A DNA stretch of 62,459 nucleotides, filler included, from Hausera hauseri (GCA_046269625.1; 12 parts of 12 records of this genome joined end to end with filler, not necessarily neighbours in it); one strand, 5' to 3'; shown: positions 901-55,777, numbered from the whole stretch's first letter. Numbers and translations are program-made. Notes: generated by a model not told the origin, from the sequence alone.

Positions 901-1552
901 GGATTCATTGCCTCTATTTAAAGAGATATTTAGCATCATATCTTCTAACTTATTGGTCTCTTTTGCATTTTCCTCTTTTTCAAACAATTTAGTCCACTTT
1001 ATTTCTTTAGATATCTTTCTCGCAGCTTTTCTAGCTAATCCAATTGCCTTTTCAAATTCGTTTCCTTAATTCTTCCGTCGTATTGTTTGTCATAATTCTG
1101 TCAATCACTGTTTCGTCAGGGAGGGTGCTTTTAGATAATTTGAATCTCGAAGTTTTCATGGTCCGTGCTATATTATATATTAGTCTTTCTTTTTCGGACA
1201 GTATGTCACCTTGGAGTCCGGTATAGTTTACTATCCTAATTAAATCTCTCATTAGTTCTATCAGTTCTTCGTTATCTGAGCTCGGAGTAGGTACTGATAG
1301 TTGTCTCAGTTCCCTAATCAAATCTGCATTATAGTCTACTTCTTTTATTTTTCTTGGTCTTCCGACTGGCCGTTTTGGTTTTACTGGTGGTAAGGTTTCA
1401 CTCAGCGAGACCAAATTCTTATCATATTGCAGTTTGTCTTCATCCGTCTGTAAATACTCAAAGTACATTGCGGCATCCTGAATCCCCATGATTTTCCCAA
1501 CACAGTGCTTTGTATGTGTCTTCCTTATGGCTTCGTCTTTAGTCTGCTCACT

Positions 1553-1774
1553 GATGATAATTGCTATTATTCGATTTTCCTCGAGGGGTATAATATCTAC
1601 ATCTATTAGAAATTCTGGCTCATCTAATATTTTGCCTCTGAAATAAAGTCGATAATTAACTTCTTTTCTATTATCCTTATCAATTATCCGTTGTTTTATA
1701 TCCCCAACGGTAGTATAGGTGGTACATTGAAATTCCTCGTCGTCCATTATTTCTGATGATACCTTCACTTTAAT
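1553..1774 (-). other. Ubiquitin-like domain within the retroelement polyprotein
   Basis: IKVKVSSEIMDDEEFQCTTYTTVGDIKQRIIDKDNRKEVNYRLYFRGKILDEPEFLIDVDI follows the ubiquitin pattern (T-V-x-D-I-K-x-x-I, R-L-x-F-x-G-K-x-L-D); no C-terminal GG. Confidence 0.7.
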
Positions 1775-4640
1775 TTCCGCTTCTGGTTTATTTTTCAATA
1801 GTTTAGCGTATTCTGTTATTAGAAGCTTAGGTACGGCGCTGTATGCAGTGTTTTCACTGGATAACTTAGTCAAAGTTGGAATCAATTTCGTTAACTTTTC
1901 TTCACTTATGTTTATTTTCAATACATTGCTTAATTCCTTTTCAGTTAATGCGGGGTCAAGAAGCATTTGCACGTAGAATTTCGTCTTCTGTGCACCAGTA
2001 GGTGACTCATAAATATGTATTGGAGTTCTTTGACTTTGCTCGGTTAGACCTTGGAGATATTCATCCCATTCAGCTTCATTGTCTACGTCAGGTAACTCAT
2101 AGTTCATTAGTGCTGTATGTTCGACTTGGATTCTTTCGCGTAATTCGCTTAATTGCGGCTGTAGAATTTTCATAATGGATACCATAAATCCATCACCGTT
2201 TCCACAAGCTTGTTGTATCAGCTTTATTAATTGACACATTTCCTCTGGTTGTATCAAAGCATTTTCTTGATAATTAGTCACTTCGGCGATTCTGTTTCTT
2301 TGCCATTTCTGTATAAATTCGGTTTTATCATTCAATTCATATTCCGTAAGGGAATATTTGTTTTTATAGGTTTCTGTTTCTCTTAGTAATTCGTTCAATT
2401 GGCGTCGATTTTTCTCAGAGCGTAACCGGGTTTCTTTTATCAGACGTATCCGATTTGTTAGTCTTTTCTCTACTACTTCGTCAATTTCCGCCATTTCTGT
2501 CAACAATGAGATTAAATTGTACGTTTGGTTTAACACTTCGGCGTCTGGATCTATTGCGTCCATCAGCCTACTTACGAACTTGGCTTCATCGCTCGTCAGT
2601 TGCGGATCATTTCTAATTTTCGTTAATTCGGAGTGGCAATGTAGGTCAAAGCCTGGTGATCATTCCACTGGATTCTGTATATATTGCAGTGTCTGCGCGA
2701 GAGCAATCCGGTGGTTATTACATACTTCTATCTCCTGTACAGAGATTTCCTTTAACGGTTTCTGTATTAAGTTCTGCATTCCTTCCCAACGGATGTTTAC
2801 TAAGCTCCGCTGGAGATCACTTAGTTTATTTCTTTTTCTGTAGAAGTCCTTCTGCTCTATCATAGTATATATTTCTGTTACGTTGTCAGATCTTGATCCT
2901 GATTCATAAATTCAAGTTCTCGAAATGATTCGAATTTGATTCGCAATCTTGTTTCATCTTCCATCGTATCGATATCTGTTAGCATTTCTTCTAATTGTTG
3001 TTTCATTATCGGCTTAACCACAGCAAACACCCTTAGTCGTTCGTTAATCACTTCGGCTATAGAAGGTAACAAATTTATCCACTTCTCCAATTGTTTAAAT
3101 ATTTCTGGTTTAGCGTGTATAATTTTGTCCAAAGCCTCAAAAGCTTCTTTTAGTTCGTGATCGGGTATTCGTACAAATTCTAGAATTTGTCTCGTGTAGT
3201 TGTATTCCTCTTTATATTCATCTAGTTCGAGGAGACAGGCACGTATTTTTCTTTGTACTTCTACTTTTTCGAGGTGAACTATACCAATCTTTAAGTCGTT
3301 AATTTTGGCTCGTATTTCATTTTCTCTTTCGATACGTATTTTTAAATCTGTATATTTCTGAGGTTTATCCTTTATTATGCTGCACATTTCCAATAGAAAG
3401 AAATTATCGGTTTGGTCTATATTCAGTATATATAGGTTGGCATCAGTTAGTTCTTAAACTTGCTTATTATGAAGATAAGAAATTATCGCTTCTTCTATCT
3501 CACGTATCAATCCTTCTAAATTACGCCTTACGCGTTTTAGTCTTGGGTTGTTCTTAAGTGTGTTTAACAGTCATTGTGATTGATTAACCTGATCCAGAAA
3601 CGGTTCGTTTTTATTCTACCATATTTTCGTAAAATTGATCTCACTCGTCTTCCAACTTTCTAATTTATTTTCCCAAGTTTTTATCAAGTCTTGCGACGTT
3701 TCGTGCAGTTCATACTGTATGTCTTCTTTTCCTTTCTGGATGTCGGTTTTCAACTTCTTATATAACTTTTCTAAGAATTGTTGTTCATTCCTTGAGATGT
3801 CCAACTGCTTGCTCATTTGCCGAAGTTTTTGCAAGCTCTCAGGTAGTCCTTTTAGGTCGTTCAAAGTGTCTCTTATTTCTGTTAGTTCATTTGCATTTTT
3901 CCAAGATTTTCTGATCTTCGCAAATTTAATCGACTTTTCCTCTTTTGACTCCTCTTCAGTAGATGGTAATGGACATATTTCATTTATTTTATCAATATTC
4001 GTAATGCTTGTTATTTCCGTGGTGTCTTGTATTCTAACAGGAGTGTCTAACTATGTTTCATCTCTTATAGTGATAGTGAAATCTTCTTTTTCTACATCCC
4101 TTTTGATAGGTGATCGTGAACGAGTTCTCGACCTTTTTCTAAGAGAGGGGCTTTTACCTCTATTTTTTCGTTATCTTAAGTATCAGTAGTCCGATAAATT
4201 TGCTTTCAACCTCATCTGTTGCTTTGTCCTTATCTTTAGGTGCAGCCTTAGCATCCAATGTTACTTTGTCCTTATCTCTAGGTGCAACCTCGGTATTTGC
4301 ATCCAAATCTACGCTTGGAGACATAGTTGGCTTTGCCACTGGATTTAGGTTTTTCTTTCTGGCCATGTTAGTATTCTTAGGTGATAGCCTTTTCGTATTC
4401 CGCTGTTGGTTCTCTTAATCCGTGATAAACTTCTATTTGATGCAACTTTTCTTCGTATTCCTTTCTAACCTTGATTACTTGTGGATTATTAGATTCGCCC
4501 ATATTTTTTACACACCTCCGTAAGTCTTGCATTTCAATAATCATGCTTATGTCACCTCGTTTCCTGTAGATCCTTTCCAAATTATCTTTTATCATACTAG
4601 CTCTATTAGTCTCTGCAAATGATACACTCTGTGGATTAAG

Positions 4641-5780: not shown

Positions 5781-5880
5781 NNNNNNNNNNNNNNNNNNNN
5801 NNNNNNNNNNNNNNNNNNNNNNNNTTAATTAATTAANNNNNNNNNNNNNNNNNNNNNNNNNNNNNNNNNNNNNNNNNNNN
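5781..5880. other. Artificial contig spacer (44 N + TTAATTAATTAA + 44 N); also at 10717-10816, 17351-17450, 22955-23054, 27543-27642, 34556-34655, 38766-38865, 44478-44577, 49074-49173, 53837-53936, 58029-58128
   Basis: Eleven identical 100-bp spacers whose core gives stops in all six frames. Confidence 0.98.
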
Positions 5881-7800
5881 GAAATAAAAATTTCTATAAG
5901 GGGAATACTGCACAAGTACCACATTATTATTATTATTATCATTAATTGACAAAACATCAAAGCTTACCTTACTCACACCAACCATCGCACCAAATTCCCA
6001 ATCCCGCCCATTGCCAACAACAACTGCATCACCGTCACTCACTGTCGCCACCGAATAATTCTCATTCAATCGATGAACACACCGCACAAACGATCCGCAA
6101 CCGCATTGACTATCAGCCAATTCAGCCTTCACCAATTGCCGTGTCTGTCGACCTTCGTCCAACTTGTCCAATTCGAATTGGCAAACAAATGTCGGCTGGG
6201 CCGTTATCGAATGTTTTGGTGTCGTCATCAATCGTGTATGAAATACGGTGCGCATTGCCGCATTTGACAAACTGAACAGTTGCAGTAACCCATCGCGACA
6301 GCCAATGACGACACAATTCAATGATGGACAGAATGTCGACGATGTGACTTGTCCAATGGGGATTCGTCGACTGCGTTTTGCCGGATTATGGACGGCACAT
6401 AGCAACAGTCCATGGGTTGTTGATGAACTGTGTTTCCCACCGGCCAATAAAATGGTATCACCGGAGGGTGGCCAGATGATTTGTGCTCCAATGACAGCAT
6501 CTTTATCAATGGTAGTGTGTTGTGTTGACGATGACATGTTGATGATCCGACAATGCGGTTCATTAATTGACGTGACTGCAATAATATCGTTGCTATGGGG
6601 ACTGCATTGGATCGATCTGACTGGACCGGTGACGGCCCTTTTGAATGAATACGGTCGTAAATGGACATCATTTGTCATGGTCAATGCTGCTGCAGTTAGC
6701 CGATAAACACCGACAAATCCGTTACTGTATCCAACATAAATTCCATCATGAAATTGCCGTGGCCAATGAACGCATGTAGGAAATACTGAACACCCCTGCC
6801 CCCCTAACAACCGTCGATCGTACGCACATAAACACAACACTGAACTATCCGCCGATATCTCCATAAATTTCCCTGCGGTACTCACCAAATTCACTGGCAA
6901 TATCCTCACGAATCCATCGACCGTTGCAATACATAAATGGCCAATCAATGGCACCGTACGAATGACTGCCGGTAACGGCTGTGGTGACCAACAACAATCG
7001 GTCATCTTACCGAATTTCTGCATCATTATCACATGCAATCTCGGTAATTGGGCATGTTCTGTACCCATATTCAATTGTCCACAATCGATTATCTGTATCA
7101 TTTGTTCATTACTGCCATTTGTCCGACCATCAGACTCATCAATTCGATCAGCCAACTCCTTCATTATCCCCACAGCAATAAATTGTCGTCCGTGATGTAA
7201 TTCACTGTTCAACGGTGCCCATGACATACAGGAAACATACGATCCGACATTGATTACTGCACCCGATTGATTGTCGATTTTATTGGCCCGTTGAATTCCA
7301 TCGAACGCCGACAACTGTTCAATACGACTACCGCCTTTCACTCGTTTACTGACAGAGATCTTCTGTAAATATGCAATTGTCGTTGTCTTCCGTTGGGCAC
7401 TGAACACCTCCGTACAAATGGGCTTTGATGGAAACAAACATTCAGCAATTCGATCATGCAATGGACCACGTTCAATATCAATTCTAATACGTCAATTCGA
7501 ACCGTAATTCAATCACTGACAAGACAAACTCACAAAATTTTATCAGCCCAATATACTCGATTAGACAAATCACTGAACAACTGCATTTGGTCATTGAAAT
7601 GGGCTTTATAAATTTCAACACCCGATTGTGACTGACCATTTGTGTCGGATACGCAAATCGTTTGGAGCTGTTGTCAACAATAAATATCTCATTTCACTCG
7701 ATTTCCCTGCCATTCCATGTTCCAAATTTTATGTATATTTCATAAGAATCACTCGCAGTATTCTCATTCAACGATTTATTCCAATCTTCCTTCGCAAATC
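5881..7800 (-). CDS. WD40 protein, likely TFIIIC subunit (GTF3C2/Tfc6-like), partial
   Basis: Long ORF with WD-like blades (INVGSYVSCMSWAP, QFIAVG, FGKMTDCCWSP, VGYSNGFVGVY). A GT-AG intron at 7484-7533 extends the frame upstream; 3' end is cut by the spacer. Confidence 0.55.
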
Positions 7801-8097
7801 AAATTGACAACAAAACGGAATAATTTAAACAAATATTCCAACGAAAAATCTTTGCTCATTAATAGGCACATACATTAAATCCTCCGCTCAAACATACACA
7901 CTAGAAAATTGATGTTTATTTTAGATTAAAAGACCAAAATGATGCAGATAATTTCGTTAAATTTTATACGATATGCCGTCAGTTAGTTCCAGAATAGTAG
8001 AAATTAAATAACAAAATCTATGATTTATTTTGTAGATTCATTGGCGTTGTATAGGAAAAATATTGTAATTTTAACAATTAATTTACCGGTGAAAGTC

Positions 8098-8365
8098 TGT
8101 CGCTGAAAGTCAGCAAAATTCTCCTCGTCAAAAATCTCCCGTACGAGATGTACGACATTTTCGGTAAGTACGTGCCTATTCGGCAAATGCGCATTGGAAA
8201 CTCGGCAGAAACGAAAGGAACGGCATTCGTTGTGTACGACGATATTTTCAATGCAAAAAACTCATGTGACCATTTGAGCGGATTTAACGTTCAGAATCAG
8301 TACATCGTCGTCATTTATTTCTCTCCCAACAAGATTTTCAAACGAACTTATGTGAATAAGAAGAG
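8098..8365 (+). pseudogene. SF3B6: SF3B6 (SF3b14/p14) degenerate copy
   Basis: [58 protein letters not shown]. It lacks the conserved KITAE segment and has an aberrant C-terminus. Confidence 0.8.
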
Positions 8366-8419
8366 GGGGTTTGGCTACTTCCAAAATTTTAGACTCTTCC
8401 CTTATCTCTTCTACCGTCA

Positions 8420-8957
8420 TTTTTAGTTTGAGAGCAAACCGCTCTCAGCACTTTTCAGCTTTTCTTTGTTCAACTCAAAAATTTTGTCAGTTGATTGGCG
8501 CACTGTGATTTCATGTCAAAAACTTTTCTCCTTATTTTTGACATATGTTGGCCAATTCGACCACCTCATCGAGAGGGTTCACCTTCCTCATGAACGTCGT
8601 TTTAAACTATATAATGGCTTCTTCGTTCGACGGTTGGTTTCCTTTCTTTTCCTTAAAATCCGTGCACCAAACTCTAGCTTGTTCCGTTAACAAGAATTCA
8701 CATAGCTCCACAAACGGCCGTCGTAAAAAATTGTTAGCATGAATCATGTCTTCCAACCATCGTTTGGCCTCATCAGTGAATGATCCATCAAATTACCGAA
8801 AGGAAGCATCGTAGTATTTCCGGAAGTGTTCATGAGAAACTGGAGAACTTGAATGACCTTGTCCCATTGTCCTGGTTGGATCGCCAGTAAAGAAGACTTT
8901 GCTCGGCAAAGTCGGAGGATCGAAATCCTGAAGTTCATCGGCTTTATTTTCCATCAT
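8420..8957 (-). pseudogene. Isolated Ty3/gypsy (Arc-like) capsid gag remnant
   Basis: Manual translation from ATG 8957: ...SFR*FDGSFTDEAKRWLEDMIHANNFLRRPFVELCEFLLTEQARVWCTDF...FKTTF...ANICQK*GEK; capsid spacing with several stops. Confidence 0.55.
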
Positions 8958-10716: not shown

Positions 10717-11234
10717 NNNNNNNNNNNNNNNNNNNNNNNNNNNNNNNNNNNNNNNNNNNNTTAATTAATTAANNNNNNNNNNNNNNNNNNNNNNNNNNNN
10801 NNNNNNNNNNNNNNNNCTGAGGATAAAATAATTGTTTTTCAATTCTGCATTTAAGATGGAATTCGAATATTCGATATTGTGGTTCGATAGATATAATGTA
10901 AAGTCCAGCAAAGGATGATTATCTCGCTCGTTTTGGCCGAAGTATACTTCGTGTTGATTGATACTTTCTTGGACAAATCTTCACACAAAGTGACATTTGG
11001 CAATCTGATAAACTGGTTCACATCATTGTCCCATTTCTTTTGACTGCGGACCAATCGGACACTCGTCTCAAGGATTTAGTGGAGAGCAGCAATTTCCAGT
11101 CTTCTGCAGCTCAGTATTCCACGGGATATTCATGTAATCTCCGCCATGTCAGCATTGTAAAAATAATATTCCAGTTCGGCAATCGATTCGTAAACACAAA
11201 ATGTACTACTACGTCTGCAGATGAAATCCGAACA

Positions 11235-14200
11235 TGAATGGAGGGCCATTTTGTCGGGGTCCCGCCTATGGGCCTTACGCGGCAGAAACGGAAGGCCGGC
11301 TGTGCCCAACCAAATGGGCCAAAGGGCACCGGCCGCTGTGGGCACCACATCAGCCCCCCCGTAGCAAAGTGAGAACTATGAAGATCAAAACAAACGGAAA
11401 GAAAAAATCTCTAAACAAAAAGTGTATGTGTCAGTTGGTCTTAGTGTGGACAAGACGTTGGATGACTTCTACTGATTTTTCCCTGCCATGCTTGCTAAAT
11501 GTGACTCTGCGTATTTTGTCTTTATGCCGTGTGTTTGCTTGCAGAGGTTGAAGTTGGGGAAAAATTGTCAGATTTTGTTGTGAGTGTTGTGTCATGCAAA
11601 GACGAGTCAGAAAGAAGAGAAGAAGAAGGCGAAGTAGGAAGAGAGCAAGAAAATGGAGAAGGCGAAGGAAAGGAGTTGGAAGGTGGTATGCAAGAGGTTG
11701 GAATGATGAAAGGGGTAGATAGAGAGATTGGTGAAGTCGAAGTGGTGTCTGGCGGAGGAGGTTTTGTAAAAGGAGAAAGCAAGTTGTCACCAGGAGATGG
11801 AGGAAGTGTTAGAAGGTTTGAGGATGCAAAATCGGATGGGGAAAAGGAGGTTGAACTGTCAGAAGAAATTGAAGTAGATGTCTTTGAAGAAAACGTAGGG
11901 GAAAGTGGGTTAAAGAATTGAGCAGAGATGGAAGGTGAATTATTGGATTGCTGCGCGTCATGTAAAGATGTTGGTGGAGAAGTTGTTTCGATGGGAGACG
12001 TATCTTCAATGAAGAAAGCCAGTTTAGCGTTGTTGATGTGGACTGTTACTTCTTTGTCGTCCTTGAGTATGATGATGTTGTGAGAGTGTAAACGAATTAC
12101 TTTGTAAGGGCCGACATACTGAGGTTGAAAACCGCACGGCGTTTGAATCTTTGGCCATACGAACTTGGCAGTATACAAATCGTCGGGTATGTAAGGTTTA
12201 TTTCCATATAATAGTCTACAAAATGAGTCTTTGCTGATCTCAGTGAAGTGTCTCTGTGCCGCTTGTATGGTTTCATTTGTAGGAATATTTTCCAGCTCAG
12301 CCAGCTCGAACAGTAATTTGATAGAAGTACGAAATAATGCTTCCGCAAGTGAACAGCCTGTAGAAGTAGACTGTGTGTTCCGCCAACCAAGCAGAACGTA
12401 CGGAAGGAGTGTAGTCCAACTGCAATTGGACTCAGCAAGGATTTTGAGAGATGTTTTCATCGTTCGGTGAAAGCGTACGAGAAGACCATTTGATTGGGGA
12501 TGATATGGTGACGTGTGAATGTGGTCAATTCCCAATCGATTGACAATAGCTTTAAACAGGTTGAATTCGAACTGTGGGTCTTGGTCCAAAATGATGTGGT
12601 GAGATAATTTAAACCTGCTGATCCAAGTGCGGATGAAAACGTCTGCGACTGTTTCTGTGTTGGTGCTCCGAAGCGAGACAGCGTCTGACCATCGCGAGGA
12701 ACGGTCCATCATTGTGAGGATGAACTGATGGCCGTTGTCTAAATGTAGTGGGCCGCCAAGATCAATGTGAACAGATTCAAAACGAGACGTGCAGGAAAAA
12801 TGATATAGTGGTGGCTTTAAGTGCTTAGTAACTTTGTATTTTTGGTATGCCACACACTGCCTAACCCATTCCTGCACGTCAGAGCGCATCAACGGCCATA
12901 CTACTTGGCGTTGTAAGAGTCGAAAAGTGTTATTTGCACCAGTATGGTGCAGCTAATAAATGTTGTTTAATGCTTCTTTTTGAAGCGATTCAGAAAGGAT
13001 GGCCTTAGGATTATTATGTTTGGAGGTGTCAAAGGACACACCGTCGATGGTTTTGCACGATTTAAAAGATTTAAGGATGTCAGGAGGTGACTGGTTTTGC
13101 TGAAGTTTGAATTGAGGGAAAATTGGTGTAAAATCAATCGAGCTGACCGATCGGGTCAAAATGTCAGCTACTAAATTGTCGACTCCGTTTAGATGCTTAA
13201 TTTTAAAATTAAATGCTGATAAATACGACATTTGCCTCTCCTGACGTGGAGAAGGCGATTTCATAGTAATAATTTGAAGCCAGGGCTTGCGGTACGTTTG
13301 TATTGTAAACGTTCTTGCACTTAGCAGATGCTTAAGTGTTTTACGGCAAGGACCATTGCAAGCAAATTTCTGTCAAAGGTAAAATATCTTTGCATTTGTG
13401 TTGTGAATTTTTGAGAAAAGAATTCTAATGGCTCATGGGATCCATTTTTAATTTGATGGAAAACAGCACATGCAGTTGTTGTGGATGAATCCGTAGTTAA
13501 GAAGAGTTCTGCATGAGAGTCTGGATAGGCCAGGATTTCCATAGTTTTTAGATTATCTTTAAGGTGATAAAAAGCGTTGACTAGCTTGGCGGTCCTTTGA
13601 ATAGGCTGTTTTTTCTTGCCAGAGCTTATCGATGCGAATGGAGCGGTTAGAGTGGAGCGGTGTGGAACATACTTATGAATAAAGTGCAAGGTTCCGAGAA
13701 AAGAACGCATCTCTGTGGATGTTCGTAGTAGTTGTACGTTTTTGAGCTGTGTGATGCGCTCTGGCTGAGGTAAATGTCCGGAGGAGCTAATAACATGTCC
13801 TAGGAAGTTGACCTTATGTTGCAAAGAATAGCATTTGGAGAAATTAATTTGCAAGTTGTTTTGGTGCAAGCGTTGGACGATTAAACGTAAGTGCTCAGAG
13901 TGTTGTTTCTAGGAAGATGATTCAATTAAGATATCATCGATATAGGGATAAGCAAAGTCTAAACCTGAGAGAACTGTGTCAATATGCCTTTGGAAGGCCT
14001 GAGAAGCGCTACGGAGTCCAAAAGGCATGAAAAGGCATTCGAAAAGGCCGAAAGGTGTAATGGCAGCCATTTTTGGAATGTCTGCCGGGTCCTCCGGAAT
14101 TTGGTGGTATGCTTTGTGTAAATCAATGCAGGAAAAGATGGTCGAACCATAAAGCCTGTGAAAGATATCGTTGATTAATGGTAGTGGGTAGGAATCCATT

Positions 14201-16770
14201 GTTGTTATGATGTTGAGTTGGCGGTAATCACCGCATGGGCGAAAGGTACTATCTTTTTCTAAAACCACATGCAGTGGTGAAGACCACGACGATTTGGGTC
14301 TTCTGATTATTCCTGATCTTTCCAGTTCGAGAATCTCAGCCTCTACTGCCTGTCTGCGGCGAGGCGATAGCGGGGAGTCCTTTTGACGTATTGTTCTTTG
14401 ATGTGCTGATACTATGTGATGGAAGGTGGATTGAGGTGGTACGAATGATTTGTCCTTTTGCAACAGACGCGTGCATGAAGACGAGATGTATTTCTGAAAG
14501 TCAGAGGGCAACGATGAAAAGTTATCAGGCGGTGTCGATGCATCGTGACTGGTTGCAGTTGAGGTATGAGTTGTAGGCAACGTTTTGCGACAAGTGGTAT
14601 TTGGTGCAGGATGTTCGTGTTGAAGATGGTGTTGGCAGCTGTACTGTCAGTAATAGGTGCACCACAGTTGACAATATCGTATTTGTTGCCGTAATAAAAA
14701 TTTCTATATAACGAATGATTATAAAAATAATTTAAATTGGGTGGTCACCGAAATGGTGCTAATTTGATTAAAATTATTGCCGCTGTTTAAGTAACATCGT
14801 TGCCAGTCTACAAGTAAATTATAGTGGGACAGAAAGTGTTTGGGAAATTTGGAAGTGTGAAAGTTAATTTGGTAACAAAAGTTTGTAAAGGTTCACCGGA
14901 CGCAGTGAACAATTGCTTTTTTGAAGTGAAATTGGTTTGATTGTGCTGTGTTGGTGGTAGTAAAGAGATTGCTGCGCCGGTGTCTATGAGAAAATTGATA
15001 TTTTGCTTTGTTGGAATGACGACTGCCGCTGCCAACGTGAATACAGTAAAAAGTGTGTCAGCTATCGTTTTGTAGTTTGTTGCCTTTGCTAGAACTTGCT
15101 GTGTGTCCTAGCGGCGAGATCAGTTTTTTGTAACCGGTGAGTTTGGCCTACTGTTTTGTGTGGGTTTAATGATGTTGATTTTATTGTGCGTGTTGCAGTT
15201 ACAGCCAGGTAGGCATTTTTGTGCTTTTGTTCCAAATTTTGCGTGATAGATGCAAACAATGTTGCTTGTATGAAAATTGGGGAGTAAAATTTACAACCGA
15301 TGCAGCATTTCTGAGCATTATTACCGAATTTGTTATGGTAGTAGCAAATAGATGACCGTGCAGGCGAAGGCGACCGTCTTTGTCGCTGATTAAATACATT
15401 AGGGGAAGCAGCCCTAGAAAAACTCCGTCGAGGCAGCGTTAACTCATTTAATTTGTCGTTTATGTTTTTAATATTTTTTGCAACATTTCATTTTCTGTGC
15501 GTAATTGCGCAATTTGTTGCTACAGCATTGCACTTTGTTATTGTTGGTTTGTTGTTAATGCCGCAGAGACAGTTGGTGTTGTGTGTGAGTGCAGCACTTC
15601 ATAAGCTTTGTCTGCTAGTTCGGCTAACTTTTCCAGTGCCGTGGAGTCCTCGACCACAGTGAGCAAAGCTCTTATTTGAAGGGCAATGCATTTAAAAAGT
15701 AACGACGAAGAAGTTTTATACTATGCTCAGATGTTACGCTAAGGGTATTAAGGTAAGACAAAGATGTGCACAAGAATTCAGAAGGCTTTTGAAAGCCCAT
15801 AGCGTTGTCATTGATGAACCTTTGAATGATAGTGTCGATTGACGGCTCAGTGAGCTTAAGAACGGCATTATAAAGTTGAGCATATGGATCGGTGTGGTGA
15901 AGAATGTCGATAATGTTTGTAATTTTAGTTTTGATGGAAGCAGGTAAATGAAAAACACGCTGTTGGCTTTGTATAAGCGGCGACGATGTTTTGTGATTAG
16001 AGCCAGAATTGATGCAGTTTTAGCCATGTTTTGGTAAAATTTTGGCTGTCGAAAAAGTATTCTGTGCAGGGTGAATGAGTAGAAAGTGTGTGTTCTGTCG
16101 GAGTGGTTGAAGCAATTTGTTTGGGTAGAAAAGTGATGGTGATCAGTAGTTTGGTGGGTTTGTCCGTAGTATCAGTAGTGGCTGATGAATCCATGCCACC
16201 ACGGATGCGGACGTGTATATGAAGACAGATATAAGATGAAGAAGATTGCAGGGTCCCAACGAGAGGTACCGTGGAGTCGTGGTATGTGCGATAAAAGTCA
16301 GATGAGCGAAGAAAAGTGGAGATAAAGTTGTAGATGTCTGTGGTGTTTGCGTGTGTTGATGCAATTGTGTAAATGTGTTGGTTGTTTAAAAAAGAGAGAA
16401 AGTAAGGTGGGCGTATAACCAGGGGCGTGTATTGGGGCGTCAGCGAGCGGTGCCGTCCGACCCAATGGTATAGGGTAGGCGGCCCGGAATTCAGCCTTGC
16501 CGCAGCGGATCCCAAACGTCGGGGTGACCGAGTTCCCCAAAGGAATGGTAGGTTCGGGACGCGTATTATCAGACATGTGTATTTGATGACTATTGGAATT
16601 GGACGGTTTCAATCAGAGTATGAATATAGTCTTTGCTGGTTTGTGAAACCCAAGCTTTCTCTCCAGGTGGAATGTAAAATGACAGGAATCCCGATTTGAC
16701 GATGAATAAAACTGACGACGCATGTCGGATAGGTGGCACTTCGGTTGGGCAGTATTTAAATGCTATAACA
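11235..16770 (-). mobile_element. Ty3/gypsy LTR retrotransposon family A, near full length, degenerate
   Basis: Gag about 15100-16200; protease FLIDTGAAIS (14808-15035); RT RPCGDYRQLN...YIDD (13909-14580); RNase H TTDSS (13321-13869); integrase VHIDL..LDQ..HPQSNG (11522-12892). G7 PPT at 11354-11360; Trp-like PBS remnant near 16517-16531. Confidence 0.92.
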
Positions 16771-17724
16771 GTTGAGCACTGAGTATTGAGGGCTGCGATA
16801 TTACTGTTAACTCGGAGTACGTATTGACAGTTTGAGAGTTTTGCTTTATAGATGATTCTTGATTATGAACGCACGTTTTATAAGATATGTAAGTTTTATG
16901 AAGAAAGTATGAGCACTGTGGCGATAAAGCGATATTAGCCATGAGTAGAAGTCTAGCATCTTTACTATGTATAATGTTTTTGATTTTTCCGTTGTGTCTT
17001 AAAATACCTTGTGCATCGCTATTTAAGCACGATGCATGTATTGACCATTCATGACAAATGAAAGGGGAGCCGTGCATTATAGCATTTATAAATGTACAAG
17101 TACTTCTGAATAAGAAAATCTTTGACTTATCTAATCTAAATTCAGTTGCATTTGTTACATATACATTTACGAAAAAACAAAATCTCAGTAGGGCTTATGA
17201 TAAAATGTCTGAAATGGGTAAAATGAAATGCTCTGGTTGATTTATCAATAATGAGCAATAATTACCGTGTTCCGCTCTATATGGTCCATCCCGGTACGTC
17301 GCCGGTGAATATCCTTGATGGATGTTTCTGGCCGCCGGAGGACTGCTGAANNNNNNNNNNNNNNNNNNNNNNNNNNNNNNNNNNNNNNNNNNNNTTAATT
17401 AATTAANNNNNNNNNNNNNNNNNNNNNNNNNNNNNNNNNNNNNNNNNNNNTATAGTTATGATCGACAAGTTGCTGCTTTGTGTCACTTTGACAAGTCACC
17501 AACCTTCAAGCCGTAACAGCTGTCAAAATATCCAGTTTTCCAACGCTTTTGATATTTTTGAAATTTCTAATATGATTATTCTATCTAGAGTAAGAAGTGT
17601 TTTTTATTTACCTTCTCAAGCAATTTTTTAGGGTTGCTTAACTGTAAACACAGTAAATTAATTTAAATAAAATCTGCAATAAAAGAAGTACAAGGAAAAA
17701 GATAGTTGCAACATCTTAAAGGGA

Positions 17725-19779: not shown

Positions 19780-22689
19780 CAGACCTGGGCATTTAACGGC
19801 CCTCGGGCCAGATACGGCCCTTTGCCTGTCCCTGTCCGGCCCGCGCCCCCGTCCCCCCTCCAGTCAAAAATAAAAACGGATTTTGGTGTGCATGCGATGC
19901 AGCTGTCTTTTATTTTGAAAGGGCCTGACGCATTGTTTCTGAATGCGTCACATAGACGCTAACGCACAGTGACTTGATGCAAGCATCCCAATCCCTGATC
20001 AACACAAAATGTCGTCTCACGGTAAAAAAAGAAAAGTTGATTTAGAATGCCGCGTTTTCAACAAGGCATGGACAGCGACATATTTATTTACAGAGGTCAA
20101 AGGTAAAGCTGTGTGTTTAGTTTGTGGTGTGTCAGTGGCTGTGCTAAAGGAGTATAATATCCACCGTCACTACGTGACTAAACACGGGGAGAAATACAAG
20201 AACTTTTCAGAGAAAGAGCGCGCAGCTGAGTCGTCTGTGTTGCTAGCCAAGCTGCAATCTCAACAAACAATTTTTACAAAACGTTTGACATCCAGAGGTG
20301 CTGCAGTCAAGACAAGTTTTGTCATATCGCACAAGATTGCTAGAAAGAGCAAACCCTTCTCTGATGGAGAGTTTATCAAGGAGTGTTTGGTGGAGTCGTC
20401 TGCGCTAATTTGTCCCGAGAAAAAAGACGCTTTTGAGAATGTCTCGCTCTCCCGCCGCACCGTAACGAGGAGGATTGAGGACATCGCGAAAAACCTGGTG
20501 CTACAGTTGAAAGACAGCGTGAATGACTTTGAGTACTTTTCCCTGGCTTTGGATGAGAGCTGTGATATACGGGACACTGCCCAGCTGCTCATCTTCATGC
20601 GCGGGATCAGTGCAGACTTCAGAATCACAGAGGAGCTGGCAGACATGCGGTCAATGAAAGGGACAACCATGGGGAGTGATCTCTTATCTGAGGTAAATGC
20701 ATGTCTCGAAAGCTTGGGGCTGAAATGGGACAAACTGGTGGGCGTGACAACAGATGGGTGTCCAAGTCTCACAGGAAAAAAAGTTGGTCTATTAAAGCGA
20801 ATCCAGGACAAAGTGGCAGAAAAGAACTCTGATCAGAAATTAACTTTTTTTCATTGTATTATACATCAGGAAGTGTTGTGCAAGTCAGTGTTACAAGTGA
20901 ATCACGTTGTTGATGTTGTAACTAAAACAGTTAACTTTATCAGATCAAGGGCACTGAATCATAGACAGTTTGTTTCACTTTTAGAAGAAATGGAGACTGA
21001 CCACCGTGACCTAAGCTACCACACACACATCAGGTGGCTGAGTTTGGGAAAAGTGCTGAAAAGATTCTGGGACCTGAGAGAGGAGATTCGGGAGTTCTGT
21101 GTGAGGAAAGGACATGCCATCCCTCAGCTTTCAGAGGCAGACTGGCTGGCAGATCTTGGTTTTACTGTTGATGTGACTGCTCAGATGAATGAACTAAATG
21201 TGAAACTGCAAAGCAAGGGCCTTTTTGTGTATGAAATGTACAGTGCAGTCAAGGCCTTCAGTAGGAAGTTGCAGCTTCTGTTGAGCCAAATCAGGGATAA
21301 TATTCTCACTCACATGCCAACACTGAAGCAAGTCACCCCATCAGCAGATCAGCTCCAAAGGTTCTCATCCATGTTAGAAGCACTGCATGTCGAGTTTTTA
21401 AGGCGATTTCAAGACTTCAAAACTGTTGAGAGTGAAATGCACATGGTGTCTTCTCCCTTCACCTGCAGTGCTGATGATGCATCCAGTGATGTTCAGATGG
21501 AACTCATTGACTTGCAGTCTGACACACTTCTGGCAGACCGCTTTGGGTCAGTCCCACTGCCTGAGTTTTACGCTTCACTCAAACAGGAGAACTTTCCGCA
21601 CTTAAGGAGACATGCTCAAAAGATCCTTGTGCTCTTCGGATCTACATATGTATGTGAGCAGACATTTTCAGTGATGAAGTTCAACAAATCCAGATACAGG
21701 TCTTCCATTACTGATGATCACCTCGCAGCTGTCCTGCGCATAGCCACATCAGACATTCAGCCAGATTTCAATGCACTTGTTGATGCCCAAGACAGACTGG
21801 ACTTTTCTCATTGAAGAAGTAAACTAGTATAGAACATTATATTTGACACTTTATTTTCCTTTTAGTACTTCAGTTGTGGAGTACTTTGTTTGTAGTAGAG
21901 GATTTTGCAATAGTCAGAATATTTTTGATCCTTTGTCAGTTCTTACAGGTTTTCAAGTATTCAAAGGTAGTCTTTTTCTTTTCTATTTCTCTTCAAACAC
22001 AAGTCCCCCCCTCCTCATCCATCCCTCTGCACACTGCTTTGCTCTCTGTTCTCACTGTCCCTTTCCACCCTCCTAATTAAGATAGGCCGAGCTCCTGGCT
22101 AAAACAACAGTCTGTCAGAGGATCGCTTTCCTTAATTTTGTAGTTATTGTATTGTTACCTAAAGTGCTGTTACTTTTGTGTGTACCTCTTTTTAAGGTTT
22201 TATCGTTCAAAGTACTTTGTGGTACTTTTTCCCCATTACTTTCAATCTGATTGGGGGTACTTTTGTGTTATTTTGTCCTTTTATTCAAGTTGCAGCACTT
22301 CAGGTCCTTCATGTCTTTCCAATACAAAAACCATTTATTGTTCATGTACAGTTGATCAGTTGTTCTACAATACAAAACATTTCAGTTGTGAAGATATTAA
22401 CAAGTTAAAAATAAAATTCAAATGTGATGACTTTGTTTGTTTAAACTATTAATTTGATAGAATCAGTATTAATTCTCACTTCAACCTAAACCACAATTTG
22501 TTCATGTTTGTAAATATATTAATTTTCTTATTTAATACCAAACAAATCTGATTTAAATATTTTACTATAAAAAGAAATACAATGAGAAAACATAAATCTA
22601 TATTAAATTTGAGTCATTGCTGTTTCGGCCCTCCAACACATTTCAGATTTTTCATGCGGCCCCCTGAAGAAATTAATTGCCCACCCCTG
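19780..22689 (+). mobile_element. Full-length hAT transposon, Buster/Charlie/SPIN group
   Basis: Imperfect TIRs CAGACCTGGGCATTT ... AATTGCCCACCCCTG, subterminal CGGCCC motifs, and 3' flank CAGTAGAG fitting the nnnTAnnn target consensus. Confidence 0.9.
20009..21814 (+). CDS. Intact hAT transposase (SPIN/GTF2IRD2-like), 601 aa
   Basis: BED-like CLVC...HRHYVTKH, LALDES, TTDG, CIIH, RW, CEQTFS; uninterrupted ORF. Confidence 0.95.
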   Translation: MSSHGKKRKVDLECRVFNKAWTATYLFTEVKGKAVCLVCGVSVAVLKEYNIHRHYVTKHGEKYKNFSEKERAAESSVLLAKLQSQQTIFTKRLTSRGAAVKTSFVISHKIARKSKPFSDGEFIKECLVESSALICPEKKDAFENVSLSRRTVTRRIEDIAKNLVLQLKDSVNDFEYFSLALDESCDIRDTAQLLIFMRGISADFRITEELADMRSMKGTTMGSDLLSEVNACLESLGLKWDKLVGVTTDGCPSLTGKKVGLLKRIQDKVAEKNSDQKLTFFHCIIHQEVLCKSVLQVNHVVDVVTKTVNFIRSRALNHRQFVSLLEEMETDHRDLSYHTHIRWLSLGKVLKRFWDLREEIREFCVRKGHAIPQLSEADWLADLGFTVDVTAQMNELNVKLQSKGLFVYEMYSAVKAFSRKLQLLLSQIRDNILTHMPTLKQVTPSADQLQRFSSMLEALHVEFLRRFQDFKTVESEMHMVSSPFTCSADDASSDVQMELIDLQSDTLLADRFGSVPLPEFYASLKQENFPHLRRHAQKILVLFGSTYVCEQTFSVMKFNKSRYRSSITDDHLAAVLRIATSDIQPDFNALVDAQDRLDFSH

Positions 22690-27642: not shown

Positions 27643-29376
27643 ACCTGAATCGACTAGGAAATCTATGTGGCGGGATGTTGGTAATGTAGTTACTGCTTTT
27701 ACTGTAAATACAGCGAAAGTTTTCGGCTGGTAGAAACTGAAAAATGGCCTTCGCCAGGACTCGCCGTACGTTCTGGCGGCGGAATTAGTTTTTTGCAGTG
27801 GTGAACATGGGCGGCCGTTAGAAAACGAGATAGTACATTCGACGTTTGTATGTTGTGTGCTACTTCTAAAGGTACAACCGGGAATACACTTATGTGCCTC
27901 ACTCTTAAATTTTGCGTGGTAGGTGCAAATAGGATTGTTAACTTGATACTTTTGGGTGTAAATGCGGCACCCAATATGGCATTTTTGTGCTTTACGAGCA
28001 AACCTGTCATGGTAAAAACAGATCAGCGATCGTGCAGGAAACGGTGACCGACCTCTGGATACAGAGCGTGTGCGATCGTAGGTGGAACTCTTTCATTCAA
28101 TCTATCATTAATATTGTTTATTGTATTATGTAGGGCTGTTTTCGGCCCACAACTATTGTATTTAATATTCTAATGTGTTGTCGTTTGCTGCGAGTGCTGC
28201 AGAAATGATAGGTTGTGTGTTCAGGTGTAAGAACTCGTACGTTTTGTCTGCAAGTTCGGCTAACTTATCCAGCGCCGTCGATTCCTCGATGACGGTAAGC
28301 AGGACTCTGATCTGGATCGGTAATGCGTTTAAAAAGTAACGTCGTAAGAGATCGAAATTATTTTGTTATGTAACGCCGAGTGTTTGTAGTTGAGCGAGAG
28401 AGGTTCTAAGAAAATATGATGTTTTTTGTGTACCCATAGCGTTACCGTTGAAGAATCTATGGATTATAGAATCCATAGACGGTACCGTGAGTTTCAAAAC
28501 TGCATTATAGAGATAGCTGTACGGGTCGGATGTTGAAATATATCTAAAATATCGTGAAGAAAAGTCTTTACTGTGTTTGGTAAAAGGCAAGGTAAACCAT
28601 GGGCTTTGGCAGATGGATCAGTAATGTTTTTAGACTGTAGATAGAGTTTGTGAAAGTTAAGCCAGGTTTTCCAGGACTTTTCGTGATCAATAAAGTATTC
28701 TGTGCACTGAGGAGTATGTTTGCATGGCAGGATGGAAGGTGTATAAGTGGCAAAAGTAGATGGTCGTTGATTTTTGGTGAAAAGTGAAAGGTGATGGTTT
28801 AGAGGTAGTTTTGTCAGTAGTGTCAATTGTGGGCGAAGATTCCATGCCACCACGAATGCGAATGTGTACATGAATAATGACATAACGGGGTGAAGGAACA
28901 AAAAGGTCGCGAAAATTGACATTAATTACAGGTAAGTTGTTGTAATTAAAGTAAAATTCAGGAAAACGAGCAGTGTAGCATATAATTATGCAAGAAACGT
29001 GTCTATAAAACACGTTGTATCGAGTGTGAGAAAATGGCGATTATTTAGGAAGAATAAAATCGGGAGTCGGTGTTGGCCCTAATGGTGACGCGACGGACCG
29101 TAGTGTAGGATCCACTGACATTGGACAGAGGGTTGGGCAGTCGGTCACGCTGTGATATACTCAAAATTCAAGGGTTTTGTTAAGCGTATATGAACAAAAA
29201 TCTGAAGTATCTAAGGAAATGGGTCTTAAATGTCAACCACAACGGAGGGCTAAGTTTAAAAGGGGCAATGTTGTCGACGGCGGACATGTTAAGAACAAAA
29301 ATGAGAAAAACAGAAAATAGAAATCGCTAAGAATCAAATTTAAAAATGGTTGCCGGGCGAATAGTACGCAATGACA
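27643..29376 (-). mobile_element. Gypsy family A, 5' part (terminal region and degenerate gag)
   Basis: Homologous to 15000-16400 (HVHIRIRGGMESS..TDK, CTEYFID..KTW, ESTALDKLAELADK). A TG-starting terminus lies at 29376. Confidence 0.8.
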
Positions 29377-29399
29377 AATCTCACCTCACCGTGTATCCG

Positions 29400-30050
29400 T
29401 TTCACCGATGAGTATAAATGGAATCGTTCATAAATCCCACCAGATTGAATGTTTTCCGAACAGATGATAACAAATCAGCGAACAAATTTCGGAAATTAAG
29501 TTATTTCGACGATTTACAACACCCAACCAGAATACTCCATAAACATGTTACTGCTATACCACGTAAAGTTTCGGCTGTTCTTCCGGCTTGCCAAAATGAA
29601 TTTGGTAAAATTGCAAAGTTAAGTAATTTTCCAAGGCTATCACTTTTGAAATTTCCTTCGGAATTGAAAAACCCTTCCATATTTGACGTTAATTTCATTG
29701 GAATTATAAAATTTCTTAAGCGTAATTCAATTTCCTGTACTTTAGCTAACGTAATGTGTAATAATGAAAGTGTATCGATTAATTGTCCAAGAACAGGACC
29801 AGCACTTATCAAAAGTTTACTGCACATACATCGTCCCATACTGTTTGCAGACATATTAGGAGCTTTCTTTAATAATTCTGATAAAACATCGGCAAAATGT
29901 TCATTTAATGACAGTGCATCGCGAAATTTGACTAAAATTAAACTAAATTCGTAATTTAAGACCTCGACATATTTTTCATTTGAATCTTGAGATTCATGTA
30001 AAGAAAAGAAGAGCTGCAGAAAATGCAGTATAGCCAAACGTTTCGCAACT
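29400..30050 (-). pseudogene. DNAAF5: DNAAF5/HEATR2 internal fragment
   Basis: SAGPVLG...ELRLR...NSEGNF...LPNSFWQAGRTAETLRGIAVTCLWSI matches the HEATR2 WxAGRTAxxxR motif. There is no proper start, and a stop occurs at 29501. Confidence 0.7.
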
Positions 30051-30499
30051 CGTGCAAACGAGACTCGCATCACCATAGGGACTAGATGAAATGGTTCAGC
30101 AGATACAATAGTTTGAAAACTTAAACATAGTCGCTTGTCCAGAATCTGATTCATTATAATCAGAAACTGTGAAGTTGGGATTGCCATCATCATCTGGTAT
30201 AACTCTATTTCCAAAAGATTCAAATAATAATTGAGAATACGAAGGTGTTTGGGGTTTTGAAGATGATGATTGTGGTTGACTAGGGGTATATTGAGAGCCT
30301 ATCAAGGAACATATCAGAGACATATCGCGCACCACATTGCGCCGGACTTTAGTTGAAACCGACCCGCGCCTAACTGAATAATGCTTGAGACATAAAGGTC
30401 CTGATCCAATAATATCAGTTATGCCTTTCTCTACCAAAGGCATTTCGTCATCTATAATCGAACCGTCATAACGACAGTTCGGAAAACAAGCCCGCTGAA

Positions 30500-31060
30500 C
30501 TTCAAATAAGCGCAGAGTTCATAAACAAAAACTCATGTTTCATTTCAAGAAGAATCCATCGATGTGCAAAAGAGAAATTTCCCAATTGTTTTGCTCGCAA
30601 AAAATTTGCCAATTCAAGATCAAGATAAACAAGAAGATCGTGTAAAATTTGAAGTTTGGCCATAATGTTAGACTGATCCAAATAATTTTCGGCATCATTA
30701 TCATTAATATTCATACTGTAAACATATTTATTATCGATATTTTCTTTAAAACTTGAATTGTGACTGCAATCTTTGTACCTTTTTATTTACAAAGTCGCCA
30801 GATACTCTACGCATCAATGAACAAAAGCATATATATGCAACTGCGTCTTCGCCTTGTACAAACAATATGGGGCTTGCCAAATCTGACATACCCTGATGAT
30901 AACCAACTGATGGATGATACAGGCAATATGTCGCAAGAACGTCAAATATTTGAGACACATGAACATTGCTCATTTCACCAGAATAGAAATTCAGTGATCG
31001 AACAGTTCTAATAAAATCAATGCTGACCAAAGCAATATGGGCCAATTCATGCTCTGACTG
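30500..31060 (-). pseudogene. TBC1D25: TBC1D25-like RabGAP fragment
   Basis: IDFIRTVR, YHPSVGYHQGMSDLASPILFV..EDAVAYICFCSLM, FAHRWILLEMKHEF; broken into pieces. Confidence 0.75.
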
Positions 31061-31287
31061 TTTTCCTTGTATGAATCTCTGTTTCCAACAAATTTAATCT
31101 GTCGCGACCTGTTAGACCAAGTGGATATACATTTATGTTACTATCCGTTTCTACTTTCGATGACTTGAACATAACTACATCTGTCACATATCATGCCATT
31201 ACTATTACAATTTCAATAAAAATAACAAGTCCATTGACCTGGACGTGCTTCGAGGGTTCCATTTTTTCAATCATGACCATTATCTCG

Positions 31288-32085
31288 TTAATCCATATTA
31301 ATTCCCGTGGCGTACTGTTGCCTCCATAGTTCAAAGAATCGCATTTTAAAAACAATGGATAAACAAACATTGCACGTAAACGTTTCTGGATTAAAGTCAA
31401 ATTCACACAGTTCACATCGATTGACATTTATTATCCCTTTCAACGAAAGCAACTGATCAGAAAATATAGAAAGCAAGTAGCACTCCAAAACACGGTCATA
31501 ATAACCGTGGCCAACACAACAACAAACAATAAAACATTGCAAAACATATTTCTGTTCATCTCTCAATTGACTGTCGTTAATTATCCATTCCTTTCTATCA
31601 TTAATAAATTCATATCCAATCAATTCCAAATAGTCCGAATAATTTAATAATTTCCGTAGGTGATTTTCTATTTGTGGAGTATCAATCTTTATACATTTTT
31701 GACAATAAACTGAATATTTGAGCAATAAATTTTTTGCATAATCACAATAAATTTCAAATGAATTTTTAAAACAAGAAGTTTTTTCTTTTGTCGCACAATT
31801 TCGAAGAAATTTTTCAATGGGGAAATAATTATTCAAATACAATGTTGCTCGCTCTTGAATTGAAATTTTGCTGGAGAGATTTTTAAGACTTAAGAACGAT
31901 ATCTCCTTTGATTTGAGATATTCCAAGTATGACGCCCACAATGAATCCAACATTAAAAAAGCGGTAATACTGCCGCTAGTCGAAAGTTTCATCGAACTTG
32001 TCAACGTCAACGTTATCGTTTTAATTCCATGTATTAAATGCATTATGATTGTTTTTAAATCTTGAAGACTGGTTAGAGGTAGCAT
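31288..32085 (-). CDS. PUB-like domain plus C4 zinc finger protein (RNF31/SPATA2-like)
   Basis: FEIYCDYAKNLL...IKIDT...YLELIGY PUB-like signature; CELC...N...CNVC RanBP2/NZF-like finger. Confidence 0.45.
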   Translation of the reverse strand: MLPLTSLQDLKTIIMHLIHGIKTITLTLTSSMKLSTSGSITAFLMLDSLWASYLEYLKSKEISFLSLKNLSSKISIQERATLYLNNYFPIEKFLRNCATKEKTSCFKNSFEIYCDYAKNLLLKYSVYCQKCIKIDTPQIENHLRKLLNYSDYLELIGYEFINDRKEWIINDSQLRDEQKYVLQCFIVCCCVGHGYYDRVLECYLLSIFSDQLLSLKGIINVNRCELCEFDFNPETFTCNVCLSIVFKMRFFELWRQQYATGINMD

Positions 32086-32340
32086 GATATTATGTTACGG
32101 TTTTTGTGGCTTATCGTCAGGTTCGTTAAAATCATGTTTCATTAAAATCATTAAGCTTTGAGCATCTGGCAATTTCTGCAAATCGAGTAATTCCGTGGGC
32201 GTCTAACACCGTTTTAGTTTCAGCGTTAAGTCGGATGTTTTAAATGATTCCACCGTTATAAATCATGAAAGGCAGAATGCATAACTAATAACGTATTTAT
32301 TTTAAAATTGTAAATTCGATAACAAAATCATTATCCATAT

Positions 32341-32940
32341 CTAAAAACAACCATCTCCCGATTGGAAATTACCAATAAAGTTGACTGTTCGTTTTTGGCA
32401 AACACTGCTAGAATCATCAGCACCATTCCCATGATCATTGTAATGACAAATCAGTTCGTAAAGAACTCCGTAAGCAAAATTACAAAACTGGCAAATAAAT
32501 TTTATATTCTCCTCATTTTTGTGACTTTCAAAATAATTGGCAAAGTTGTCCAATTCATTTGGTGATATTTGTGAAGAATACTGCGAGATATCAGTTTCTG
32601 ATAACTGTAGAGGTTTTTGTTACAGAATTTACATTCGAATATATTGTTAACAGAAATGATCGGATTGTGATTATCACAAAATACATCAAACGTCGATTTG
32701 TTCTTTGTGTTTGTCGACACAAAACTGTTTATAATCAGCAACCGACGAAAACGATTTCTAATGTTGAACAGTAAAGGGTCGACTACTTTTTAATTTCAAA
32801 TCAGTCGCATAGCATTTCGGCAAATACGACGGATCACAATTTGTCCAGACTTTGTACGATCAAATATGTTTCGTGGAATTTGACTTTTGCGTAAATTTCC
32901 GTCCGCAAATCAGACATTGAAACGGTTTCTCACCGGTGTG
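32341..32940 (-). pseudogene. C2H2 zinc-finger gene fragment, ZNF341-like
   Basis: [31 protein letters not shown], then FECKFC and FICQFC..LYELICHYNDH; stops and frameshifts. Confidence 0.6.
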
Positions 32941-32954
32941 CTATTTTGTTGGCA

Positions 32955-34555
32955 TCATTTGGTAGTAAACTGAGATTTACGATGTCGGTTTTTATTTTGC
33001 AAATTATATTTATTGTGCTGCAGCGAAGATAACGGATGAAAACCTTGATGTTCGATTATGGGAATGAATGTAAACATCTCTTTAAAAGCTTTAATACTAA
33101 ATTGCCAGTATTGTCGTAGAACAATGGTTGGTGTGTTGTACCGTGTTGATTGAGGGTATTCTGTATTTTGGTGTTGTGTTCGGGTACAAAGGGATTTTTC
33201 TGTGGAAACTAAGTCATTGTGTGGAATCTCGAATAGGGATCTATATATCTCGGTTGTTGTGGTCCTGATGAGATATTCTGACACGATGAGGTAAAAGCGG
33301 TAAAAGCGCATCAATTCGTCGGCAAATACAAAAACAAATAACAACAAATGAGAAGACTATAATAGTGTATTTACAGGTCCTTGTTGGGCACAACATCACC
33401 CAATACAAAACGAACGCAAAGACGGAACAGTGTGGACTAACTATGTAGTATTCGTATGTAGAAGACGTTGTATTCCTTCAGTATTTAGCTATTTACTGTA
33501 GGTACTAAATGTGACTGATTTGCGATTTTTCAATGCCTTTGAGTCTGGTTGCAGAGGTGATTAAGGTAAGACAATGTCGGATTTCGTCGTTGGAGGTGTT
33601 GTGTCGTTCGTAGACGAAAAAGGAGCTAGGAAGGGAGATGTAGGTGAAAAGGAAGTAAAGAGTGAAAAGTTAGTAGAAAGGACGTTTGTAGTAGGTTCTG
33701 GTAAAGGAGTAGTTGTAGGGTTTGGCATGGTAAGTGGTGCAGGGATTGAAGGAACTGAAAATGGAAAAGGCGAAGGAGTCAGAACGGGGCTAGAAAGTTC
33801 AAATTGGGGGGTACCGTTTAAGAAAAAGGCAGGTTTGACGTTGGTGATATGTACCGAAAGTTCCTTACCGTCTTTAGAAATAATGGCGTTGTGGGAGTGT
33901 AATTGGACGAGTTTGTAAGGCCCCAAACACCGTGGCTGAAAACCGCACGGCGTTTGATTTTTTAGCCAAACGGATTTTGCGAATACAAGTCTTCAAATAA
34001 ATATGTTTTGTCTTTGTGAAGTAACATGCAGAACGAATCTTTACTGATCGTAACAAAGTAATTTTGTGCTGCCCATATCGTTTCATATGTATGGGGTATC
34101 GTCAAGGCAGTATGTTCGAATAATGATCGTACAGGAGCACCGAATAAGGCTGCAGTGGGTGAACAACCGGTAGACGTAGACGCAGTGTTCTGCCAACCAA
34201 GCAGAACAAACGAAAGAAGATTCGTCCAACAAGTATTTGACTCGGTAAGGATTCTTAGTGACGTTTTCAATGTTCGGTTGAAACGTTCTAAAAGTCCATT
34301 CGATTGGGGGTGATAAGGCGTAGTATGTATATGCTGAATCCCCAATCGGTTAACAAGAGATTTGAACAGGTTAAATTCAAACTGTGGACCATATTCCGTG
34401 ATGATGAAGCGAGGTGATCCAAACATGCTAATCCATGTATGAATGAAAATGTCAGCAACGGTGTCGGTATTTGTGCTCCGCAGAGGGATGGCTTCTGGCC
34501 ATCGCGAGGAACGGTCCATCATAGTGAGAATGAATTGATGACCGTTGTCCAGAGG
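32955..34555 (-). mobile_element. Gypsy family A, 3' part (integrase, S/P/T-rich tail, 3' terminal region)
   Basis: MDRSSRWPEAIPL...TTPYHPQSNGLLERF. A terminus TGTTGTGCCCAAC starts at 33395 after GGGTGA, as at 11349. Left boundary is approximate. Confidence 0.85.
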
Positions 34556-55757: not shown

Positions 55758-55759
55758 TT

Positions 55760-55777
55760 TGGCGACCCTAGCAGAAC
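55760..55777 (+). promoter_or_regulatory. Primer-binding site, tRNA-Arg-like
   Basis: TGGCGACCCTAGCAGAAC is complementary to a tRNA 3' end ...GGUCGCCA. Confidence 0.75.

Follow-up and report, generated by a model that had tools for sequence, protein, structure and literature searches.

Between the gag and env genes of a decayed Ty3/gypsy-type element in Hausera hauseri lies a long coding region, here called region X, which in all probability contains an internal ubiquitin-like (Ubl) domain (1777-1550, minus strand), as judged by sequence comparison. We lean somewhat towards the reading that X belonged to a single Gag-X-Env(-Pol) polyprotein and made up its cytosolic middle, where it would form a helical, particle-linked scaffold with the Ubl domain as a docking site. 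Arrangements of this kind, with a helical and Ubl-bearing insert placed between Gag and Env, have been described before. Our analysis adds to the elements with the Burro-type layout (Gag, then a helical region, a Ubl and a gB-type Env) a compact case from a lineage that has hardly any detectable relatives in protein databases. The case is relevant to how gB-only elements couple the capsid to the membrane, and to why Ubl domains persist in them.

The element and its second copy

The window, that is, the whole stretch of DNA analysed (GCA_046269625.1), is 62,459 nt long and consists of 12 contigs with N-spacers between them. Its DNA is that of an animal and contains abundant transposon debris. 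The first copy of the element occupies contig 1 (1-5780) on the minus strand, in the order gag (5759-4641), region X (4640 to about 1060) and an env of the gB/Monjiviricetes type. X is about 1,190 codons long and is split over four frame pieces. We counted 15 breaks in this copy, namely ten stops, four frame breaks (whose positions were judged by eye) and a deletion in env. Copy 1 is a dead element.

All features of copy 1 given below are on the minus strand. The gag gene is of the Ty3/gypsy type (Pfam Retrotrans_gag, E = 0.091; zf-CCHC, E = 0.0067) and comprises a capsid region with two stops, an Arg/Asn-rich linker and one zinc knuckle (4682-4641), the final position of which is a stop in copy 1. 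X starts in the Gag frame immediately after the knuckle (4390-4640), where no protease motif was seen. It continues with an acidic, low-complexity segment (4190-4378), which includes a 42-nt tandem duplication (4217-4290) and is 13 residues shorter in copy 2 owing to a gap, and then with a basic Ser/Arg/Pro patch (4096-4167). An amphipathic helical region with four in-frame stops (2880-4095), the first part of which is conserved in copy 2, is followed by a second helical region with one stop at 2662 (1802-2878). The earlier note made no mention of the stops and frame breaks that interrupt X from 4595 to 2660. The final part of X is a stop-free frame of 535 codons (P0001, 1052-2659, with a Met at 2563), which holds the Ubl domain (1550-1777) and an AT-hook-like basic motif (1349-1375). 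A last helical segment without a family match (895-1330) crosses the frame break near 1060 and lies where Burro has a BCL2-like motif.

Hydrophobic segments are absent from X. The first one of the element (894-826), which by hydropathy is a probable Env signal-anchor, lies right next to the Env match on its upstream side. Ahead of this segment, 57 codons of the Env frame are open, and the frame overlaps the end of X. The broken env (50-831) matched Pfam PF24664 in two parts (E = 8e-10 and 2e-12; profile positions 61-180 and 516-638 of 653), with about 335 profile positions missing between them; its hydrophobic segments lie at 340-251 and 238-179. Contig 1 stops about 50 bases past the Env match, and no Pol was seen on it.

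A second copy, diverged and broken, was found on contig 11 (56062-58027, plus strand). It covers gag, which here carries an internal deletion, as well as the knuckle and the first third of X; its contig ends before the Ubl domain. Each copy has one zinc knuckle, and the knuckle together with the gag-X junction is 52% identical between the copies over 87 codons. Five pieces of X (210 codons) showed 48% identity with pN = 0.33 and pS = 0.83, which is saturated, and gag (82 codons) showed 65% identity with pN = 0.20 and pS = 0.84; the pieces were picked by eye and by local alignment, which biases these values toward conservation. The comparison of the two sequences indicates selection on X at the protein level. 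Stops and frame breaks fall at different places in the two copies, none being common to both over the end of Gag and the first third of X; therefore, Gag was likely read on into X. The earlier note had taken X for a region of the element between Gag and Env, and this view is borne out by the protein-level conservation of its first third in two copies and by the gB-type Env that follows. X and the Ubl domain are A-rich like the whole element, which sets them apart from host genes and from the other gypsy family of the window. We ruled out that X is a decayed Pol, given that it has no Pol domain matches and that gag and X are joined in the same way in copy 2.

No LTR pair was found on contig 1 or contig 11. 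An ACA followed by a TGGCG primer-binding-like site (55755-55766, plus strand), about 300 bases upstream of gag in copy 2, is a possible end of a 5' LTR; one match such as this primer-binding-like site (55755-55764) is expected by chance. At the extreme end of contig 1 there is a 17-base purine run (19-3, minus strand), which may be a polypurine tract or merely a series of Glu/Gly/Lys codons. A broken gypsy pol on contig 9 (45736-49073, plus strand) contains a protease, a dUTPase-like insert (by eye), a reverse transcriptase and an integrase, and it is A-rich like the contig 1 element. It may belong to the same family or to a sister family, the link between the two being composition alone.

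Relatives of X are scarce. A full HMMER scan of 1.84 billion representatives with P0001 gave P0002 as the sole match (34% over P0001 residues 50-181, in the second helical region, E = 5e-16), which ends before the Ubl domain and is a singleton from a 2,157-base ENA contig. Word-based protein searches with P0001, the gag piece and the gag alignment returned nothing, as did locus scans of metagenome contigs and viral contigs; a phage tblastn and an Atlas search with the whole ORF gave no match. The long open frame at 1052-2659 gives no support for domestication, as a stop-free stretch of this length among 15 breaks may well arise by chance (P about 0.12).

Modules within region X

RSRTRSRSP (4134-4108), KRPVGRPRK (1375-1349), the Ubl domain (1777-1550) and the Met of the ORF (2563) were all found where the earlier note had placed them. 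The Ubl domain alone matched Pfam ubiquitin at E = 3e-5 with 24.1 bits, just under the cut-off of 25.4, and within the whole ORF at E = 4.6e-4; the next two Pfam families were also ubiquitin-like. Against the PDB (E <= 5), the best 60 of 72 matches were all ubiquitin, its variants or Ubl domains, judging from their names and lengths. The very low E-values in this search come from polyubiquitin, where scores are summed over repeats, and the best single-domain match had E = 0.0085. With a profile of the whole ORF, 10 of 14 rows were ubiquitin-like. An internal Ubl domain, as had been proposed, is thus probable from the near-threshold Pfam match and from the PDB rows listed for the domain, all of them ubiquitin-like.

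In the alignment to ubiquitin, R42, L43, F45, G47 and K48 are kept, and I44 is replaced by Tyr. An Atlas search with the domain returned three unnamed clusters and then six Ubl clusters at 0.87-0.89, which we take at the level of a lead. AlphaFold, run on the single sequence without an alignment, gave a pLDDT of 48 for the Ubl domain and 34 for the ORF, and Foldseek with these low-confidence models had no match at E <= 0.001 and is hence uninformative. A C-terminal diglycine was looked for and is absent from the domain, which is therefore not conjugatable. Its identity as a UBX domain was ruled out, for the FPR motif is missing.

Long coiled coils had been claimed for X, of which the analysis bears out the helicity alone. 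Helix-spaced hydrophobic periodicity of an amphipathic kind is present, with 0 of 300 shuffles as periodic at 4170-2880 and 2 of 300 at 2878-1802, and the Gag capsid used as a control was likewise periodic (5/300). However, heptads did not exceed shuffles: by a crude heptad score with a window of 28, 314 and 117 of 1000 shuffles were as good for the two helical regions. The best heptad stretch (2545-2426) was equalled by 32 of 1000 shuffles, at one of three window sizes. The helical regions have no match to the Smc family in Pfam or NCBIfam, and no internal duplication relates the two helical halves of X. BCL-2 gave no match at 1330-801 in Pfam, NCBIfam or PDB, by methods weaker than the HHpred of PMC6431247. 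Neither BCL-2 nor MATH, BIR, ankyrin or AIR1 was detected in the element with Pfam and PDB, and the budding motifs PTAP, PPxY and YPxL are absent.

The RS domain of SR proteins is a long run of RS dipeptides. The RS motif of the earlier note is present in X as RSRTRSRSP, and its RSRSP-x-KR part is kept in copy 2, but it belongs to a short basic/SP patch and does not form an RS domain. There are three RS dipeptides in copy 1, two of them common to copy 2, and the patch as a whole is 58% identical between the copies over 24 codons. RSRSP occurs twice in the six frames of the window, once per element copy.

As to the AT-hook claimed in KRPVGRPRK, a GRP core with basic flanks is indeed there, whereas the RGR core and the cut-off of the Pfam AT-hook family (PF02178) are not reached (14.9 bits; cut-off 17.4). 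The motif resembles an HMGA-type AT-hook in the GRP core and in the basic residues and prolines flanking it, and differs in having one motif, with Val at the place of the first Arg of RGR and a score under the cut-off. According to the accessible text of PMC11354804, this first Arg is important for an AT-hook, AT-hooks also bind RNA, and LEDGF tethers HIV integrase with the aid of AT-hooks; KRPVGRPRK equals the HMGA consensus quoted there at 8 of 11 positions. GRP[RK][RK] appeared in 11 of 5000 shuffles and RSRSP in 3 of 5000, counts that overstate the significance because the patterns were chosen after viewing the sequence; bare GRP appeared in 325 of 5000. We found no paper that reports an AT-hook or RS motif in such Gag-Env inserts in the literature accessible to us, and Repbase, most subscription journals and supplements may describe them.

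Comparison with known elements

The earlier note had called such modules unusual between Gag and Env. This does not hold, for the planarian Burro/GYPSM1 has Smc and Ubi/SUMO-like motifs in just this place. In the accessible text of PMC6431247, Burro/GYPSM1 are giant gypsy elements of 25-30 kb, whose polyprotein comprises Gag, Smc, MATH, a Ubi2/SUMO-like motif, BCL-2, an in-frame mononegavirus-like Env and then a protease, with domains annotated by HHpred. The same text places such domains in accessory ORFs or in the polyprotein, and calls the idea that they meddle with the host untested. In the accessible part of PMC11410931, Burro is merely mentioned.

The element described here is like Burro/GYPSM1 in having, between Gag and a mononegavirus-like Env, an accessory region with a Ubi/SUMO-like domain (here a probable Ubl under the Pfam cut-off) not far ahead of Env. 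Burro has its Smc motif after Gag, where X shows helical periodicity, with no heptads above shuffles and no Smc match. The type and position of Env agree, but Env is in frame in Burro, whereas here there is a frame break near 1060 and the contig ends before any protease. Burro has two or three CCHC knuckles and both copies here have one; no MATH/TRAF, BCL-2, BIR, ankyrin or AIR1 match was obtained here with Pfam and PDB; X is about 1,190 codons long, and Pol and the total length lie beyond the 5.8 kb contig. The AT-hook-like and RS motifs of X are unmentioned in the accessible description of Burro (PMC6431247). Because the element has a single knuckle and neither MATH nor BCL-2 was detected in it, and with a comparison by description only, we do not assign it to Burro.

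Chary and Hayashi have described the order GAG-ENV-POL with a gB-type Env in flatworms, nematodes and bryozoans (PMC13524379, in its accessible parts). The Platyhelminthes rows of their supplement 1 have ENV_HSV in 9 of 9 cases, and the nematode rows are of gB type in all 15 examined of 72 term matches. In some of these errantiviruses the Env ectodomain lies between two transmembrane segments, and the entry mechanism of gB-only elements is called unknown (PMC13524379). The words 'ubiquitin' and 'AT-hook' do not occur in the accessible main text, which describes no insert. Our element is similar in that a gB-type Env comes after Gag with no Pol between them; however, those errantiviruses are intact, and here the element is broken and Pol is not visible. 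Sacco et al. (2022) reportedly found a nematode clade, NERV, with a continuous gag-env-pro-pol frame and an RNA-virus-type glycoprotein between Gag and Pol. NERV elements are not known to have a long helical or Ubl insert.

Role of region X and other features of the window

The polyprotein reading builds on the gene order, the motifs, the helical periodicity, the conservation of the first third of X with no shared stop there, and the lack of a hydrophobic segment before 894-826. X translated in line with Gag would be made in equal amount, and this would suit a structural part linking capsid and envelope. X would reach up to the signal-anchor through which Env enters the membrane, and could so provide a capsid-envelope link during assembly. 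In the predicted topology, Gag-X is cytosolic and the Env ectodomain lumenal, with the signal-anchor between them and a second anchor after the ectodomain, probably followed by Pol. The protease of the element may later cut X. The predicted internal Ubl domain might dock host ubiquitin-pathway proteins or other proteins of the element, and the basic/SP patch and the AT-hook-like motif might serve in nucleic acid binding or as import signals once released. We infer the joints near 2880, 2662 and 1060, as well as the cleavage, partners and location of X; copy 2 ends before these joints.

The earlier note had proposed an accessory region with nuclear functions. Its place between Gag and Env stands; a separate accessory gene is probably not what it is, as no stop is common to both copies over the end of Gag and the first third of X, and as X is linked to the gB-type Env by a hydrophobic segment. 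Leader peptides of betaretrovirus Env reach the nucleolus, and by analogy X or a piece of it might act in the nucleus, where the AT-hook would tether the integration complex to AT-rich chromatin, or the Ubl domain and basic motifs would disrupt host silencing. The low shuffle counts of GRP[RK][RK] and RSRSP, the RSRSP-x-KR kept in copy 2, the 8/11 match to the HMGA consensus and the precedent of LEDGF for AT-hook-aided tethering (PMC11354804, accessible text) speak for such a role. However, there is one hook only, under the cut-off and without the first Arg of RGR, hooks bind RNA too by the same accessible source, any polyprotein that packages RNA can be expected to have basic patches, and the predicted topology would put X in the cytosol beside a membrane anchor if it is not released by cleavage. 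We consider a nuclear role unlikely. A special form of it, which we regard as very unlikely, is an enveloped gypsy lineage with its own chromatin tether, in which the protease frees a Ubl-AT-hook fragment from the Env leader and the fragment is carried with the capsid into the nucleus. If true, the freed fragment would steer integration to AT-rich DNA as an element-encoded counterpart of LEDGF. It is quite unlikely that X consists of one or more separate accessory ORFs, starting for example at 2563 or 2863, whose free protein manipulates host ubiquitin or apoptosis pathways. The Met codons at 2863 and 2563 and one before the hydrophobic segment would permit separate ORFs, the 535-codon stop-free frame has its stop at 1052 and overlaps the Env frame, and placement in an accessory ORF has precedent (PMC6431247, accessible text). 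Yet in both copies the Gag frame runs on into the first third of X, a gap of such length among 15 breaks has P about 0.12, and the 57 Env-frame codons before the hydrophobic segment are open, as they would be in a leader fused to X.

Compatible with the scaffold reading, but rather improbable in our view, is a Pol-less family, that is, a non-autonomous LTR-Gag-X-Env-LTR element that borrows its enzymes from a partner such as the contig 9 pol. Pol is absent between Gag and Env in both copies, the purine run at 19-3 may represent a polypurine tract, and the contig 9 pol has a like composition (3-mer correlation 0.94, as compared with 0.27 and 0.46 for the other gypsy family) and no knuckle directly upstream (by eye). 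However, a 16-base purine run also occurs inside X, and in the published GAG-ENV-POL order (PMC13524379, accessible parts) Pol would fall just past the end of the contig. That X is a piece of a host gene captured recently, with no role for the element, is extremely improbable: its composition is element-like, it follows Gag in the same frame, its protein sequence is conserved in a copy whose synonymous sites are saturated, and the 1.84 billion representatives held no cellular homologue, P0002 being the sole match.

The window holds several other features. A second gypsy family, which is C-rich, is spread over three contigs (10817-17350, 27643-34555 and 34656-38765) that are 65-72% alike. Between the integrase and gag of another gypsy family than that of X, a mosaic of host gene pieces (by eye) was seen on contig 6 (29400-33000, minus strand), with a C2H2 finger, a TBC-like stretch and a weak PUB match (E = 0.0019). 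An uninterrupted hAT transposase of 613 codons (19973-21814, plus strand) has a Spin-doc-type zinc finger and a G+C content above that of its surroundings, and a long uninterrupted beta-propeller-like frame (5833-7491, minus strand) is unlike its neighbours in composition. There is also a damaged RRM fragment (8082-8426, plus strand), which presumably resembles the splicing factor SF3B6, and a fragment of a DNA polymerase B of the protein-primed type (59834-60415, minus strand), which we take to be Maverick-like.
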